5,691 nt of DNA, from the IMG/VR virus record IMGVR_UViG_648276670_000007, positions 1 through 5,691 of that record; one strand, written 5' to 3'. The notes beneath the pieces were generated by a model that saw only the letters and a program-made list of their open reading frames with translations, made no database searches and was not told where the DNA came from. Each line of letters starts with the position of its first letter. Position 1 is the first letter of the stretch. The stretch is from a virus (lineage: Duplodnaviria > Heunggongvirae > Uroviricota > Caudoviricetes). Positions 1 through 5,691 of the stretch are shown piece after piece. The translations under genes and the position numbers were made by a program.

Positions 1-390
1 TTACTCTTTTTTCTCCGTATCTACATCGGGTTCATCAGCAAATAGCTTGCCCTGCATCCGATCCAGTTCTTCTTTTCTTACCCGCTTAACCACGCTGTAG
101 ACCCACTGAAGCGAAACACCAAATTTGCGGGCCAGTTCATGGTGATTACGTCCGTTAAACTCCCTGAAGATTTCCCGGTCGCGCTGACTGACCTTCCATA
201 CCATGCCCATCGGGAAATAAACGTTTTGCCCGCCCCAGACCTGCATCATGCGGTTCGCGACGGCCTGACCAATCTGGTCGGCAATTGCGGGCTCAATATC
301 AATAATCTCGCGAACGGTCTCAGAGGTATGCTGTGCCAGTTCCACCAGGAGTTCCGGCCCTTTACTTCGAAACTGATTCAGGTCGCTCAT
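1..390 (-). CDS. mor: Mor/C-family transcriptional activator (middle operon regulator) of a Mu-like phage, complete 129 aa
   Basis: ATG at 390 with GGAG 6 nt upstream, TAA stop at 1-3. The C-terminal part (YFPMG...RDREIFREFNGRNHHELARKFGVSLQWVYSVVKR) matches the Mor/C family HTH signature as I recall it. Sits immediately after a GemA-like gene, as in Mu. Overlaps the gemA 3' end by 29 nt. Confidence 0.85.
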   Translation of the reverse strand: MSDLNQFRSKGPELLVELAQHTSETVREIIDIEPAIADQIGQAVANRMMQVWGGQNVYFPMGMVWKVSQRDREIFREFNGRNHHELARKFGVSLQWVYSVVKRVRKEELDRMQGKLFADEPDVDTEKKE

Positions 391-814
391 GTTTTACTCC
401 CGCAGCTCTGCGCTGCCACTTCTTCAGTTTCTCAATAACACTGCTTGCCTGTTCAGTATTGAGCCAGCGCAGGGCGCTGATGCCCGTTTCCCGCTTGATC
501 CACCGCGCTAATGCATTTTCTGAACGGTCACGAACAATGCCGGCAGCAGCCATTTCAAGCCATAGCGCACGGATTTTCCTGGATTGCGGATGGTTATCCA
601 GCGGTAAACCGGAGCTGGCTTTTCCTGCAGGCCTAACGCGAAAGCCTTTCCTTTTCATGGATTCCAGCACGCAGTTTAGTTGTGTGGTATCCATTCCTTT
701 GGTTGAGGCTTTACCGGTCAGCCCCTGTAACATCTGGCGGTAGGTGTCTTCATCCATACCCAGTTCATTACGGGCAATATGAATGAGCTGGATAAGACGT
801 TGTTTAGTCATCAT
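362..814 (-). CDS. gemA: GemA-like (Mu gp16, DUF1018) regulatory protein
   Basis: N-terminal TKQRLIQLIHIARNELGMDEDTYRQML resembles the GemA/gp16 family signature. Start chosen at ATG 814 because AAGGAG lies 5 nt upstream; the longest ORF starts at ATG 853 but has no SD. TAA stop at 362-364. Confidence 0.75.
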   Translation of the reverse strand: MMTKQRLIQLIHIARNELGMDEDTYRQMLQGLTGKASTKGMDTTQLNCVLESMKRKGFRVRPAGKASSGLPLDNHPQSRKIRALWLEMAAAGIVRDRSENALARWIKRETGISALRWLNTEQASSVIEKLKKWQRRAAGVKHERPESVSK

Positions 815-1019
815 CGTTGCTCCTTCTGCCTGCATCACCGATATAATCGACATATAAAGGAAGTGCCACAGGCCAGCACAGGAACATCACCGACCAGCTA
901 ATCCAGTAACCGGCACCACTGTAACGTGAATAAAACCCTGAACGGCGGTGCAGTTCAGCAGTACACCAACCGACAAAACAATACCAGAACAGGGCACATA
1001 CAACAGATTCAGTCGTCAT
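804..1019 (-). CDS. small hydrophobic (probable membrane) protein, about 71 aa
   Basis: Internal ATG at 1019 of the 804-1175 ORF, chosen because the longer form would overlap the neighbouring ORF by about 167 nt. Two hydrophobic segments (VVCALFWYCFVGW, YWISWSVMFLCWPVALPL) and an acidic C-terminus. A G-rich tract lies 9 nt upstream. Start is uncertain. Confidence 0.35.
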   Translation of the reverse strand: MTTESVVCALFWYCFVGWCTAELHRRSGFYSRYSGAGYWISWSVMFLCWPVALPLYVDYIGDAGRRSNDDD

Positions 1020-1239
1020 TCTGAATATCCCCCCAACTGATATGAATATTACGGGCAGCAATGACAGGGTCTTTATTCCACCATGCACCTGACATGTATT
1101 TTTCAACCTGTTCGCGTCCGGCAATAACACCAATTGTGATCCCCGGCCTGACGTTCTTAAAAAAGGCGCGGGCAAAAAGGTATCTGGCAGATATTCGGCA
1201 GGCTTTTAATTTCCGGCTGTTACCTGATAACGTAATCAT
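1009..1239 (-). CDS. hypothetical protein, 76 aa
   Basis: ATG at 1239 overlaps the TGA of the upstream gene (ATGA coupling), with GGAGG 4 nt upstream. No recognisable family. Confidence 0.4.
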   Translation of the reverse strand: MITLSGNSRKLKACRISARYLFARAFFKNVRPGITIGVIAGREQVEKYMSGAWWNKDPVIAARNIHISWGDIQNDD

Positions 1240-1919
1240 CTGGCCTCCAGTTTCTGCTGTTCCCGCCCACTGACCGGTCGGTGCAGTCTGACGTTCTGCC
1301 CTTCTCGAAACCCCGCATAGCGCGAGGCGTCGCCATTGCGACTTCTTCCCGGTTTACGCGCCCTGGTGGTTTGCGTCTGCGGGTATTTATGTTCCAGCCA
1401 CTGCTGCATCAGTTCACGTTCGTCATCGGTCAGGGCGAAGGACTGTATTTCACTGATAACGGCCAGCACCCAGCCTTCAGCAAACTGGTCTCCACGGCTG
1501 GTGCGGGTGGCGGTTTTTATTCTTTTGTTCTGTGCACTGATATACTGCTGACGCGCCTTTTTCAGCTGACGGGCCAGCACTTCCCAGGTGTACGCGGCCA
1601 GTGCGGCCCGTTCCCGGTTGCCGTAGAACCCCACACCCGGATATGTGCCGGGGTGAATGATGGAGTTAACACCAAATGCCTCGCGGATGATGTTCATCAG
1701 GCCCAGCATGTAGCGCGGCGGACGGAGGCTGCCTGTCGGCCAGTAGTGACTGATGGTTTCATCAATATCACTCATGGCGATGTCGGAATGTGTGATGCCG
1801 TGAACATCCATCAGTTTACGGGCGCGGCGCAGTGCCAGAGCAGCCTCATGCGGGTTGCCGGATGCTGCCAGCGCCAGCAACTTTTTCAGTTTCTCAATGT
1901 GCTTATCCTGGTCTGTCAT
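1236..1919 (-). CDS. DUF2786-like phage protein, 227 aa, with a basic Arg-rich C-terminal tail
   Basis: N-terminal HIEKLKKLLALAASGNPHEAALALRRARKLMDVHGI resembles the DUF2786 motif as I recall it; unverified. ATG at 1919 overlaps the stop of the upstream small ORF (ATGA). Confidence 0.5.
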   Translation of the reverse strand: MTDQDKHIEKLKKLLALAASGNPHEAALALRRARKLMDVHGITHSDIAMSDIDETISHYWPTGSLRPPRYMLGLMNIIREAFGVNSIIHPGTYPGVGFYGNRERAALAAYTWEVLARQLKKARQQYISAQNKRIKTATRTSRGDQFAEGWVLAVISEIQSFALTDDERELMQQWLEHKYPQTQTTRARKPGRSRNGDASRYAGFREGQNVRLHRPVSGREQQKLEAR

Positions 1920-2116
1920 TGTTCAGTATCTCCGGTATTTTTTTGCTGTTCCCATGCCCGAACAGCGTCGGACAGCTCTTTCAGGCTGTATGCTGCTTTA
2001 AGCTTTTCCCATAACCACTGCGTCACCACGTGGGTCAGCAGGGCAACCAGGGCGAATCCGGCGCAGATGCACACGGCTATACCAGTAAGCAGGAAAGCCC
2101 ATACCACAATTTCCAT
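1916..2116 (-). CDS. small single-pass membrane protein, about 66 aa
   Basis: Internal ATG at 2116, 7 nt after the stop of the upstream gene; the longer 1916-2353 form would overlap that gene by 230 nt in another frame. One clear TM segment (IVVWAFLLTGIAVCICAGFALVALL) followed by a charged C-terminal helix. Confidence 0.4.
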   Translation of the reverse strand: MEIVVWAFLLTGIAVCICAGFALVALLTHVVTQWLWEKLKAAYSLKELSDAVRAWEQQKNTGDTEQ

Positions 2117-2123
2117 AATGGTG

Positions 2124-2507
2124 TCAGTCACTGGTACCTCCTGTGGTGGTCTGGTCAGGTGCGGCGTGTGTCCTGTGGTATTTCCTGAACCAGTGGTACA
2201 GGGCAGCCAGTTTTCTGTCGATAACTTCAGTTTCCCTGTTGAAGTATTCCTGTGCCTCTTTCTCCTCTTGCGGCGGCAGTTCGCCCGGCCCACACAGGGT
2301 GTTGTAAATCCACGCCATGCCGTTCCTGGCATCACCGGTGGCCCGCCACTCAATCACTGCAGCTTTCATGACGACCAGATTGCGCCCGAAGTACAGGTCC
2401 ACCTCTTCAAATCTCTTGCGCAGGTATTCGTTTTCGTCTTCCAGTACCCGAATACGCTGTGCAGCATCTTCCGGCGTCAGTTGTGGCGTCTGTTCGGTGC
2501 GGTTCAT
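2124..2507 (-). CDS. hypothetical protein, 127 aa, acidic N-terminal region with coiled-coil character
   Basis: ATG at 2507 overlaps the stop of the MazG-like ORF (ATGA). No recognisable family. Confidence 0.55.
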   Translation of the reverse strand: MNRTEQTPQLTPEDAAQRIRVLEDENEYLRKRFEEVDLYFGRNLVVMKAAVIEWRATGDARNGMAWIYNTLCGPGELPPQEEKEAQEYFNRETEVIDRKLAALYHWFRKYHRTHAAPDQTTTGGTSD

Positions 2508-2806
2508 ATGATTTCTCCGGTGTATGTGACGCCCAGCCGTGCGGCAAGGCGTTCCAGTTTTTTCTGTTTGTGGAAGTCAATCAGCCGGTCCATTCCCTGA
2601 AGGCGCAGCTGCTCTGTCATGATTTCCACGTCTGCCAGCTCTGCCGCGAGGTCACTTTCGCTGCCCTGTCCGTTCAGGTTGCGGGCGGCACTGGCCGCCA
2701 GTTCAGCGGCCTCTTCTGTCAGTTTCAGGGCCTGTGCGTCCGGCCCGAAACGCTGCAGGGCCAGACGGTAGAGGGCGGTGCGGGTGAGTTCGGTGTTCCG
2801 TGTCAT
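2504..2806 (-). CDS. MazG-like nucleotide pyrophosphohydrolase domain protein, 100 aa
   Basis: Two acidic helices (LTEEAAELAASAAR and DLAAELADVEIMTEQL) resemble the metal-binding EExxE / ExxD motifs of small all-alpha MazG/HisE-type NTP pyrophosphatases. GAGGG lies 6 nt upstream of ATG 2806. Assignment is from motif recognition only. Confidence 0.5.
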   Translation of the reverse strand: MTRNTELTRTALYRLALQRFGPDAQALKLTEEAAELAASAARNLNGQGSESDLAAELADVEIMTEQLRLQGMDRLIDFHKQKKLERLAARLGVTYTGEII

Positions 2807-2815
2807 GCCGCGCCC

Positions 2816-3088
2816 TCAGTGTTTCCGGTCGACGGTGATGTTCAGGCCGCCTTCTGCAGTGGTTTCCACCCGGTACGGCACCTCGTGCTCTGCCGTGTGG
2901 GTGAGTGTGTTCATCAGTACCTGCAGGGCAGCCTCCTTTCCGTTGGTTGCCACAATGGCCTGCGTGGCCATGCTGATTAGCGCCGTCAGGACGTGCTTCA
3001 CATCGGTGAGGTCGCGGCATTCACACTCGTTGACATAGTGTTCAACAAGAGTTCGGGTGCGCTGTCGTGCTTCCTGTGGGGTAATCAT
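2816..3088 (-). CDS. hypothetical protein, 90 aa
   Basis: ATG at 3088 overlaps the TGA of the zinc-ribbon ORF (ATGA coupling). No recognisable family. Confidence 0.5.
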   Translation of the reverse strand: MITPQEARQRTRTLVEHYVNECECRDLTDVKHVLTALISMATQAIVATNGKEAALQVLMNTLTHTAEHEVPYRVETTAEGGLNITVDRKH

Positions 3089-3279
3089 TGCGCGTCCTCC
3101 CTGTCAGGGCGGGAGAATTCCATGACGGGCACGTCCGCCGAAAAATGCTGGCTGCAGTACGGACAGACCAGGGTGACACGTACTGCAGGTACGTGGTACT
3201 TACCGGACATCACGGCGATGGCGCTGTGAAAACGCAGGGCTGTTATATCCCTCTCGCACTGAATACATTTAAATATCAT
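3085..3279 (-). CDS. small zinc-ribbon protein, 64 aa (CxxC...CxxC)
   Basis: Cys pairs at residues 5/8 and 39/42 (CIQC ... CPYC). AGGAGA SD 8 nt upstream of ATG 3279. First gene after the gam-downstream intergenic region. Confidence 0.55.
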   Translation of the reverse strand: MIFKCIQCERDITALRFHSAIAVMSGKYHVPAVRVTLVCPYCSQHFSADVPVMEFSRPDREDAQ

Positions 3280-3297
3280 AATTTAATTCTCCTCTGT

Positions 3298-3334
3298 TTC
3301 CGGCGTGCAGAAGCCCACGGCGCTGACGCCGGAA
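3298..3334. promoter_or_regulatory. intergenic stem-loop (9-bp perfect stem TTCCGGCGT/ACGCCGGAA, 19-nt loop) between gam and the zinc-ribbon gene
   Basis: Inverted repeat read directly from the sequence. No U-run follows it on either strand, so it is not a canonical intrinsic terminator. It ends 4 nt before the SD of the downstream ORF and is flanked by an AT-rich tract (3335-3370). Confidence 0.4.
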
Positions 3335-3376
3335 TAAAAAAGAAAATGTTTTTATTAAATAATTAACGTGGTGTGT

Positions 3377-3907
3377 TTACTGCACATCCTGCTCAAAAGG
3401 AATTATTGAAAAATCCTCAATATCACTTTTTATGGTAATACCGGGAATATTTTTCACGGCGTCCTTTTCATTCAGGATAGCGTCTTTATTTATTTCCTCC
3501 TTTACACGGATAAAGCGCTCAAGCCCCAGACGTCTCAGTAATTCAATAACATTATCCGCCCCACGGATACTGACTGATGGCGGACGGTTTCGCCACTGCA
3601 CCTCGCCGGTGGTGAGGTTAGCGAACTTCACCTTCCCGTTGCCGGTCAGTTCATCACGGTGTGCCTCACACCATGTCTGAATACCGGACTGCAGTTCGGC
3701 CATGCGTTTTTTCAGGCTCTCGGTGAGCGGGGCATAACGTGCGGTGATATCGCCAATGGCGTCATTCATTTCTGTTTCAGCCCTGACCAGTTCACGGTGT
3801 GCGTCACCGAGCAGTCTGATGCCCTCAATGACCTCTTCACGTGTCCCCGGCACCCAGAGTGCTGCTGCGGCCTTGATACGTTTTGCACCTTTTGTACTTT
3901 TTGCCAT
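3377..3907 (-). CDS. gam: Gam-like host-nuclease inhibitor (Mu Gam family), 176 aa
   Basis: Size, position downstream of B, and motifs (MAKSTKGAKRIKAAAALWVP..., RPPSVSIRG..., GITIKSDIEDFSIIPFEQ) match Mu Gam as I recall it. ATG at 3907, TAA at 3377-3379. Confidence 0.8.
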   Translation of the reverse strand: MAKSTKGAKRIKAAAALWVPGTREEVIEGIRLLGDAHRELVRAETEMNDAIGDITARYAPLTESLKKRMAELQSGIQTWCEAHRDELTGNGKVKFANLTTGEVQWRNRPPSVSIRGADNVIELLRRLGLERFIRVKEEINKDAILNEKDAVKNIPGITIKSDIEDFSIIPFEQDVQ

Positions 3908-3934
3908 TTTTTATGATTTCTCCAGTTGTGCTGA

Positions 3935-4204
3935 TTACCACAAAGATTCCGGCCACACGACGCGACAGCCGTGCAGTTCGAAAACGCCCTGACGGAAATA
4001 TCCCCTGTGGTCATGTCCGGTATACAGATAACAGGCCTTTCCCTGCTCAAGCATGCGCATGCAATGCGCACTCCTGGAAACGCGGATGACAGGTTTGTTA
4101 CCCCTGATGGTGATGCTTTGTACATCCGTGTTCGTCGCCTTAAGCGCCATAATGGCTGACTGCACTTTACTGATTTGCTGGTTGATACCTGTGGTGGATT
4201 TCAT
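3935..4204 (-). CDS. hypothetical protein, 89 aa, in the position of Mu kil/cim
   Basis: ATG at 4204 lies 2 nt after the TAA of the B-like gene; GGGG lies 8 nt upstream. No recognisable family; the positional analogy is the only basis. Confidence 0.5.
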   Translation of the reverse strand: MKSTTGINQQISKVQSAIMALKATNTDVQSITIRGNKPVIRVSRSAHCMRMLEQGKACYLYTGHDHRGYFRQGVFELHGCRVVWPESLW

Positions 4205-4206
4205 TA

Positions 4207-5103
4207 TTAAACCCCTTTGACAACGTCAGCGTTGACCTGTGGAACCCCGATTTCAGCGGCCAGATTCATGGCGGCTATTACCAGGTTACTGACGGCCAGC
4301 GGATACAGCAGGCTGACCATATTTTTACGATGACTTCCCGGATTGCTCAGGCGGGTACGTATGGCATCCACTGCGCTGGCGTCCATAATGTCCGTCAGTT
4401 GTTTACCGGCCCGTTGCAGTTTGAACGTCAGAAATTCTTCAAGGTGATTGTCCAGAGGCAGAAGTTCGACCACCTCACAGCGCTGAACGACTTCGCGGAC
4501 TTCCATGTTGCGTTCAGACAGTTTTGTCGCCAGTTCCGGCTGGCCAATCAGCACGATGGACAGCAGTTTTTTGAAACCGGACTCCAGCTCAAAAAAGCGT
4601 TTGAGGTGTTTCAGTGTCGGAATGGGCAGACTGTGGGCCTCCTCAATCACCAGAACGTGGCTGAACCCCGCCTGGCTGCTGTCTTTCAGGACGCGATGCA
4701 ACTGGCGAAAGCGGGCGTCCTGACTGCGTCTGATGCTTTCCAGTGGCGCGATGGTACTGATAATGGCTTCGGCAATAGCTGCTGCCTTCAGGGTTTTCCC
4801 TTTCACATCGTTGTCTTCCATGGCAATGATGTATGGCTCGATAACAATTACCGGCGCATTCTCGCGGTTGATACGTTCAGTCAGGTCACGGCGCAGCGTG
4901 GATTTACCCGCACCGGACTCACCGATGACGGCCATAAACCCACCATGACGGGCTGTCTGGTACAACGCCTCACGCACGTAGCGAATGTCTGGTGTGGTGA
5001 ACACATCATCAGAACCCTGCATGGCTTCGTCGACGAACGGGTCACGGAAAAGACCAAACGCTTTTTTGGTTGCTGGAAATAACACCTGTTTTTTGAGTAA
5101 CAT
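4207..5103 (-). CDS. AAA+ ATPase, MuB/TniB-like transposition target-capture protein, 298 aa
   Basis: Walker A GESGAGKST at residues 61-69 and Walker B-like hhhhEE (HVLVIEEAH) at about 149-157. GAGGA SD 7 nt upstream of ATG 5103. Followed by kil-position and gam genes, as in Mu. The reading frame stays open for a further 42 codons upstream, up to a TGA at 5230-5232 (see findings). Confidence 0.8.
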   Translation of the reverse strand: MLLKKQVLFPATKKAFGLFRDPFVDEAMQGSDDVFTTPDIRYVREALYQTARHGGFMAVIGESGAGKSTLRRDLTERINRENAPVIVIEPYIIAMEDNDVKGKTLKAAAIAEAIISTIAPLESIRRSQDARFRQLHRVLKDSSQAGFSHVLVIEEAHSLPIPTLKHLKRFFELESGFKKLLSIVLIGQPELATKLSERNMEVREVVQRCEVVELLPLDNHLEEFLTFKLQRAGKQLTDIMDASAVDAIRTRLSNPGSHRKNMVSLLYPLAVSNLVIAAMNLAAEIGVPQVNADVVKGV

Positions 5104-5143
5104 ATTCTCTTCCTCACTGAGGCTCGTTTTATCTGTGGTACCC

Positions 5144-5175
5144 GCTGTACGGGGCGTGGCCGCGCCCTGTACAGC
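5144..5175. repeat. 32-bp GC-rich near-perfect palindrome (GCTGTACGGGGCGTGGCCGCGCCCTGTACAGC)
   Basis: 28 of 32 positions are self-complementary; the 4 mismatches are two T/G pairs that would be G-U wobbles in a plus-strand RNA. Lies 41-72 nt upstream of the B start codon, between B and the IS end. Confidence 0.6.
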
Positions 5176-5227
5176 ATCAAAACTCTTCGCTGTATCAATC
5201 CCCTGACTTTCCAGCCAGGACGCAAGA

Positions 5228-5691
<464 letters not shown>

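Follow-up and report, generated by a model that had tools for sequence, protein, structure and literature searches.

What is encoded by the run of small genes that separates gam from gemA in a Mu-like prophage of Escherichia coli? The question arises for a viral stretch of 5,691 nt (hereafter the window; positions 1 to 5,691 of IMG/VR record IMGVR_UViG_648276670_000007), in which eight small open reading frames (ORFs), named o1 to o8 here, form a cassette between these two genes. We consider it fairly probable, with some reserve, that the interval represents the semi-essential early (SEE) region of a transposable prophage of the B3/BcepMu type, common in E. coli, consisting of a conserved backbone with slots for accessory genes and having putative roles in host conditioning and replicative transposition.

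The SEE region of transposable phages has been described as a long, poorly conserved run of small genes of unknown function (PMC8705779). In the window, eight small genes (64-227 aa) lie next to gam, between the transposition genes A/B and gemA-mor, and their content varies among relatives. By its position and by the presence of gam, the interval corresponds to the semi-essential region of Mu, as the original prediction had proposed. The Mu region (Mup05-Mup15, with kil, gam and the sot/arm/lig/cim phenotypes) likewise occupies this place in the early operon and comprises small, packed genes. However, it has no detectable homologue of o1 to o8 and no MazG-like or DUF2786 gene, and the early operon of the window is inverted relative to that of Mu, with mor at the prophage end. 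BLASTP and profile searches against Mup05-Mup20 were negative for all eight proteins, and the statement that they lack Mu counterparts therefore held. SEE regions for comparison are also available from Pseudomonas phage B3 (ORF3-ORF10) and the D3112-like phage LPB1. They share the B3-type layout and an ExeA-type B protein, and B3 ORF5 and LPB1 ORF15.2 are DUF2786-DUF7168 proteins with 34-37% identity to o6, located between DUF3164/Gam and GemA. Their other SEE genes belong to PHROGs different from those of o1 to o8, and both phages carry DUF3164 where this prophage has Gam. From these sequence comparisons, the cassette appears to be a further example of the known SEE region, without a gene-for-gene match to Mu.

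Eight genes between gam and gemA

The genes of the cassette are as follows.

o1, 3085-3279, minus strand: 64 aa, Cys4 zinc ribbon, phrog_3401, backbone
o2, 2816-3088, minus strand: 90 aa, helical, phrog_3691, accessory gene in the o1/o3 slot
o3, 2504-2806, minus strand: 100 aa, predicted MazG-type all-alpha nucleoside triphosphate (NTP) pyrophosphohydrolase, phrog_2245, backbone
o4, 2124-2507, minus strand: 127 aa, coiled coil and putative Ead/Ea22-like C-terminal module, rare accessory insertion
o5, 1916-2131, minus strand: 71 aa, GTG start, single-pass membrane protein, phrog_3958, accessory gene
o6, 1236-1919, minus strand: 227 aa, basic, DUF2786 and DUF7168, phrog_421, backbone
o7, 1009-1239, minus strand: 76 aa, basic, phrog_3681, accessory gene in the o6/o8 slot
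o8, 804-1019, minus strand: 71 aa, hydrophobic and aromatic-rich, phrog_6436, backbone

Eight small minus-strand ORFs had been predicted here, chained by ATGA overlaps and co-translated. The ORF list contained all of them, and the identical eight coding sequences were annotated by the RefSeq Prokaryotic Genome Annotation Pipeline (PGAP; NZ_CP082080). The four ATGA sequences on the minus strand (3085-3088, 2504-2507, 1916-1919 and 1236-1239) were all exact. Three further overlaps were found, between o4 and o5 (GTGACTGA, 8 nt), between o7 and o8 (ATGACGACTGA, 11 nt) and between o8 and gemA (ATGACTAA, 8 nt). Translation of o1 to o8 is probably coupled through these start/stop overlaps. One ORF had been described as a membrane protein of 66 aa. 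It is o5, whose Kyte-Doolittle peak of 2.63 over residues 2-40 is clearly that of a transmembrane segment, but the length needs correction. As AGGAGG lies 5 nt upstream of the GTG at 2131, and as Escherichia phage PhiKM has ATG at this place and no internal ATG, the start is more likely at 2131, which gives 71 aa.

The ratio of nonsynonymous to synonymous substitution rates (dN/dS) was calculated by the Nei-Gojobori method against intact homologues in other genera. It was 0.09-0.30 for o1, 0.25-0.38 for o2, 0.13-0.22 for o3, 0.36 for o5, 0.08-0.21 for o6, 0.12-0.19 for o7 (diverged homologues, with the near-identical PhiKM copy left out) and 0.12-0.29 for o8. Seven of the eight genes are thus under purifying selection (dN/dS 0.08-0.38). 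The copies of o4 in this setting are near-identical only, so o4 stood outside the comparison. The coding signal that the original prediction wanted to see in homologous prophages was therefore present for seven ORFs.

Several of the ORFs are shorter than 80 aa and have no informative homology, and a 439-aa ORF antisense to o4-o6 (1281-2600, plus strand) is a reminder that lengthy open frames come about readily in the window. Chance could accordingly account for some of the eight. We regard this as very improbable: intact homologues with dN/dS well below 1 exist in other genera, cysteines and motifs are invariant, Shine-Dalgarno sequences accompany the ATGA coupling, and all eight ORFs match PHROG families (E at most 5.5e-16). 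The antisense frame is itself broken in homologues. Only the E. coli variant keeps it open, the homologues having 5-14 stops in this frame, and we therefore rejected it as a gene. The eight ORFs, taken together with the PGAP annotation, are real genes.

Backbone and slots among related prophages

The cassette was found in 640 of 5,426 complete E. coli genomes (about 12%). Its many chromosomal positions fit Mu-type random insertion. To describe its relatives, we used a GemA-anchored scan with one genome per species, which gave 23 loci in Mixta, Pantoea, Erwinia, Trabulsiella, Buttiauxella, Limnobaculum, Xenorhabdus, Photorhabdus, Dickeya, Salmonella diarizonae and others, and mapped all proteins of the window onto them. 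The commonest architecture among the 23 loci was B, an 89-aa gene, DUF3164, o1, o3, o6, o8 and gemA. A gene for o2 stood between o1 and o3 in only three loci (L002, L004 and L025), with a 24%-identical relative in S. diarizonae (L024), and o7 stood between o6 and o8 in only four (L002, L003, L011 and L012). Among the loci mapped, o5 was confined to the E. coli lineage and o4 to the variant seen in the window. Replacements were also observed: some loci had 67-aa and 56-aa proteins in place of o3, KP12 had a 128-aa protein in place of o6, and the Dickeya and Salmonella loci carried unrelated slot genes, including DUF2528 and a DUF6440-like protein. In the Photorhabdus relatives, the whole B-gemA interval was reduced to about 714 nt and retained an o1-like zinc ribbon.

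This pattern of gene order therefore resolves the cassette into four backbone genes and three insertion slots. The backbone genes o1, o3, o6 and o8 are conserved in the same order across the Enterobacterales relatives. The slots between o1 and o3, between o3 and o6 and between o6 and o8 accept accessory genes, which in the window are o2, o4 with o5, and o7, respectively. The expectation that a comparison of Mu-like prophages would expose variable cargo between gam and gemA was borne out for o2, o4, o5 and o7 but not for the four backbone genes.

The cassette block is the most diverged part of the early operon. Between E. coli and other genera, B and Mor had 94-95% amino acid identity and a synonymous difference of about 0.35-0.40, whereas o1, o3 and o6 had 56-76% identity and a synonymous difference of 0.55-0.75. 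Gam and the 89-aa gene were likewise far more diverged from other genera than B and mor. In addition, guanine-cytosine (GC) content ranged from 0.46 over o7-o8 to 0.62 over o2-o3. The high divergence and the swings in GC content argue for a mosaic origin. Even within E. coli, two very different alleles of o8 occurred, with 42% amino acid identity.

Predicted functions of the cassette proteins

The cassette had been regarded as unrecognisable cargo. This did not hold, because all eight proteins fell into PHROG families, o6 also contained two Pfam domains and o3 had already been named by RefSeq.

The MazG-like label of the 100-aa protein o3 was supported by its match to phrog_2245 (E=5.7e-34), by the fold and by an acidic motif. 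Its AlphaFold2 model (predicted local distance difference test score, pLDDT, 90) has an all-alpha helical-bundle fold, and the metal-binding motif EExxE...ExxD comprises E31, E32, E35, E56 and D59. These five residues never varied in one alignment (A3), and in another (A4) each was either invariant or conserved to at least 90%. Newer RefSeq PGAP annotation names the protein an NTP pyrophosphohydrolase family protein. Judged by modelled fold and motif, o3 is a putative MazG-type all-alpha NTP pyrophosphohydrolase. Like Atd1 of Pectobacterium phage PcCB7V, the integron protein iMazG and the archaeal MazG SSO3215, it is a single-domain, all-alpha protein of about 100 aa with an acidic metal-binding motif. 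With solved MazG structures it shares fold and motif only, with no sequence-level match. Integron iMazG performs house-cleaning of non-canonical deoxynucleoside triphosphates (dNTPs). Nucleotides are the probable substrates of o3, and the two candidate classes are non-canonical dNTPs and the alarmone (p)ppGpp. Atd1, which is phage-encoded like o3 and resembles it in fold and motif rather than by sequence alignment, depletes (p)ppGpp and guards against TIR-STING toxicity (bioRxiv 10.1101/2022.06.09.495361). If o3 hydrolysed (p)ppGpp, the cell might stay permissive and abortive-infection responses could be blunted.

The 227-aa protein o6 had been called DUF2786-like, and Pfam assigned it both DUF2786 (PF10979, 43.0 bits, cutoff 23.9) and DUF7168 (PF23771, 91.3 bits, cutoff 25.5), each above the gathering threshold. 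The protein is basic (isoelectric point 10). In its AlphaFold2 model (pLDDT 82.7), an N-terminal helical domain is joined to a beta-alpha-beta-beta-alpha core that may be KH-like. The GXXG nucleic-acid-binding loop of KH domains was not found in residues 52-129, where the loop reads YWPTGSLRPPR. A Foldseek search of viral structures with this model retrieved only other unnamed DUF2786/DUF7168 phage proteins, and the literature on DUF2786 consisted of incidental mentions without functional data.

The distribution of the o6 family was more informative. It occurred in 178 phage records, chiefly of Ralstonia and Pseudomonas transposable phages, and it was located between DUF3164/Gam and GemA in B3 and LPB1. 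By sequence, o6 seems to be the sole cassette gene common to distant transposable phages. The family was also present on 285 plasmids, 229 of them conjugative, and in an integrative and conjugative element (ICE) of SGI4/SPI-7 type, in a block with the order ParA, DnaB-type helicase, ParB, DUF2786, DUF2857, STY4528-family replication protein and topoisomerase III. The ICE and conjugative-plasmid genes have the same two-domain architecture, with 29-37% identity to o6. They belong to a different class of mobile element and sit among replication and partition genes (ParA, DnaB, ParB, STY4528 and topoisomerase III). Because the protein is basic, may have a nucleic-acid-binding-like fold and recurs in three classes of mobile element, within modules for replication or establishment, a role in DNA replication or establishment seems preferable to one in anti-defence. 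An accessory factor of DNA transactions is the likelier reading of o6, ahead of an immune inhibitor. It might bind nucleic acid and assist the replication or establishment of mobile DNA.

The rare gene o4 was present in only 6 of the 5,426 E. coli genomes, and was absent from PhiKM and from most E. coli copies. In the alignment with PhiKM it appeared as a clean insertion, with mosaic divergence extending into the first half of o5. One o4 module, some 95 aa in length (a coiled coil followed by ...VMKAAVIEW...WIYNTLxGPGELP...), had 59% identity to the C-terminus of a PF13935 protein (P0002). An exhaustive search gave 261 representative relatives, almost all of them 100-320 aa long and ending in the module. 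Among the 106 relatives scanned, 27 had a PF13935 Ead_Ea22 head and one had a Lar restriction-alleviation head. The two longest matches (1,142 and 568 aa) were rejected as spurious, since they match in many short repeated stretches and one has a eukaryotic-type SEA domain. Sequence similarity thus suggests that o4 corresponds to the C-terminal module of lambdoid Ead/Ea22-like proteins. Unlike them, it lacks the PF13935 head, and the early region that houses it is Mu-like, not lambdoid. Lambda Ea22 is described as favouring lysogeny (PMC7093339, PMC10834534). By analogy, o4 might be a recent Ea22-type acquisition from lambdoid prophages and may bias the lysis-lysogeny decision.

A quite different function was implied by PADLOC, whose model PDLC02890, labelled 'DpdH', matched o4 end to end (E=5e-92). 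If the label were right, o4 would be a component of the host-protective Dpd 7-deazaguanine modification-restriction system. The model, however, has 127 positions and scored 302.7 bits over the whole of o4, which suggests that it was built from very close relatives of o4 itself. Furthermore, neither the prophage neighbourhood of o4 nor that of its lambdoid relatives contained dpdA-K genes, and the family consists of small Ea22-like prophage proteins, as the 261 relatives and the 27 Ead/Ea22 heads among 106 indicate. Genomic context and family composition led us to reject the label, and a Dpd function of o4 is hardly credible. PDLC02890 probably mislabels prophage genes as Dpd defence components.

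The remaining proteins are smaller. In o1, the four cysteines of two CxxC knuckles (C5, C8, C39 and C42) were invariant in 10 sequences, down to 21% identity. Metal binding is predicted, in agreement with the zinc-ribbon label given to the 64-aa ORF. This gene was present in most relatives, even in the minimal Photorhabdus interval. In Erwinia tracheiphila (L013:5507-5908), an in-frame fusion joins an o1-like zinc ribbon to a domain that L006 and L009 encode on its own, as a 67-aa gene, which suggests that the zinc ribbon and the 67-aa protein work together. The N-terminal half of o5 was mosaic relative to PhiKM (72% amino acid identity), and 48 of the 76 residues of o7 were invariant. The o8 gene always overlaps the gemA start, and its product was 72-88% identical in most relatives and 42% identical in the PhiKM allele. 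It had been listed as a membrane protein of 71 aa; it is indeed hydrophobic, but its Kyte-Doolittle maximum of 1.51 is borderline, and we consider it probably membrane-associated. Both o5 and o8 would then act at the membrane. Sequence and profile searches of PDB with o1, o3, o4, o6 and o7 gave chance matches only (T4 lysozyme, IWS1, designed repeat proteins and tetherin coiled coils), and an NCBIfam scan of o1 to o8 gave nothing above threshold.

These observations bear on the possibility of an anti-defence or host-takeover island between gam and gemA, in which most of the proteins would inhibit restriction-modification, cyclic-oligonucleotide-based anti-phage signalling (CBASS), Thoeris, CRISPR or abortive infection. 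The variable content between gam and gemA is what such an island would show, with DUF2528, the DUF6440-like protein and unknown proteins of 128, 152, 168 and 269 aa as alternative cargo. The strong divergence of the cassette relative to its flanks B and Mor, the very different alleles of o8 and of the N-terminal half of o5 within E. coli, the demonstrated counter-defence activity of the phage MazG-like protein Atd1 and the Lar head of one relative of the o4 module point in the same direction. On the other hand, comparison with Pfam and PHROGs linked none of o1 to o8 to a known anti-restriction or anti-CRISPR family (no dedicated anti-defence library was searched), and the sole match in a defence database was the mislabelled 'DpdH'. 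In addition, half of the genes form a conserved syntenic backbone, and the o6 family occurs in replication and partition blocks of ICEs and plasmids. We therefore consider an island of this kind unlikely as an explanation of the whole interval. Anti-defence may still be a role of single genes, with o3 (on the precedent of Atd1) and the variable o2, o4, o5 and o7 as candidates.

A bolder proposal would treat o1, o3, o6 and o8 as one unit. In it, o3 would be an Atd1-like remover of (p)ppGpp or another nucleotide signal, disarming abortive infection triggered by Mu-type replication, and o6 would represent a new class of nucleic-acid-binding establishment factor common to transposable phages, ICEs and conjugative plasmids. 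The slot genes (o2, o4, o5 and o7) would encode undescribed anti-defence or lysogeny-modulating proteins. We hold this combination to be distinctly improbable.

Flanking genes and the SEE assignment

Positions 1-5227 of the window were 100% identical to a prophage in E. coli MS20655 (NZ_CP082080). PhiKM, which is filed under Bcepmuvirus, had 96.8% identity to the window. The minus strand carries every gene of the window, and the early operon runs on one strand in the order A, B (ExeA), 89-aa gene, gam, o1-o8, gemA and mor. The features that flank the cassette are listed below.

mor, 1-390, minus strand: middle operon regulator, final gene at the prophage end, as in B3
gemA, 362-811, minus strand: Pfam GemA (E=1.2e-40), PGAP 'gp16 family protein', downstream boundary
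gam-o1 spacer, 3280-3376, minus strand: AT-rich, 97 nt, GC content 0.43, with an inverted repeat
gam, 3377-3907, minus strand: host-nuclease inhibitor, 61.5% identity to Mu Gam, annotated by PGAP, upstream boundary
89-aa gene, 3935-4204, minus strand: between B and gam
B, 4207-5227, minus strand: MuB-like ExeA-family ATPase gene, 5′ end cut by IS100
IS100, 5228-5691: IS21-family insertion sequence within the MuB-like ExeA-family gene

In MS20655, mor adjoins torS. The gemA frame reaches 853 (163 aa). PGAP chose the ATG at 811 (149 aa), a start that overlaps the stop of o8 and is served by an AAGGAG Shine-Dalgarno sequence. At the other end, the IS100 insertion takes away approximately the first 49 of the 388 codons of the MuB-like gene; this prophage copy is probably unable to perform replicative transposition.

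The 89-aa gene occupies the kil position, and its C-terminus (...LHGCRVVWPESLW) resembles that of Mu Kil (...LNGCQIIWR). Its BLASTP match to Mu Kil was weak (E=0.14), and the C-R-[IV]-x-W motif was kept in all of its homologues. The neighbouring Gam slot holds a DUF3164 protein in 14 related loci of other genera (L003, L004, L006-L013, L015, L016, L025 and L026). This protein was 98-100% identical across genera and had 41-44% identity to B3 ORF6 and LPB1 ORF12.1. The swap of Gam and DUF3164 looks like a non-orthologous replacement at one position.

The gam-o1 spacer is the sole sizeable non-coding gap of the operon. An inverted repeat, TTCCGGCGT(N19)ACGCCGGAA, lies immediately upstream of the o1 ribosome-binding site, and there is no T-run. 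No promoter or terminator consensus matched the spacer, a promoter and terminator scan gave no more sites than in shuffled sequence, and an Rfam scan found no RNA family anywhere in the window, including the spacer. A regulatory hairpin and a site for protein binding are both candidate readings of the repeat.

Returning to the assignment of the interval to the SEE region, in which it would condition the host and support replicative transposition, several results weigh against it. The o6 gene was absent from KP12 and from the Dickeya and Photorhabdus relatives, so it is dispensable. The enzymatic prediction for o3 fell below the curated Pfam threshold (PRA-PH, 15.0 bits against a cutoff of 21.3; E=0.034) and below that of NCBIfam (TIGR03188, 14.4 bits against 42.7). 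For o4, there was no Pfam match, hence no N-terminal PF13935 domain, and neither single-sequence nor profile searches of PDB matched it to the solved C-terminal domain of lambda Ea22. Family and PDB searches revealed no informative homology for o1, o2, o5, o7 and o8. Finally, every mechanistic step was drawn from fold, motif and genomic context.

The assignment leaves what is understood of Mu-like phages intact. The cassette is present in about 12% of complete E. coli genomes, and the roles of all eight proteins are predicted only. The comparison separates the backbone from the swappable extras and gives o3 a testable enzymatic prediction. It also flags a probably mislabelled model in PADLOC, a widely used defence-system database. 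For a general function in the replication or establishment of mobile DNA, DUF2786-DUF7168 is a sensible place to look, given the link that o6 provides across transposable phages, ICEs and conjugative plasmids.

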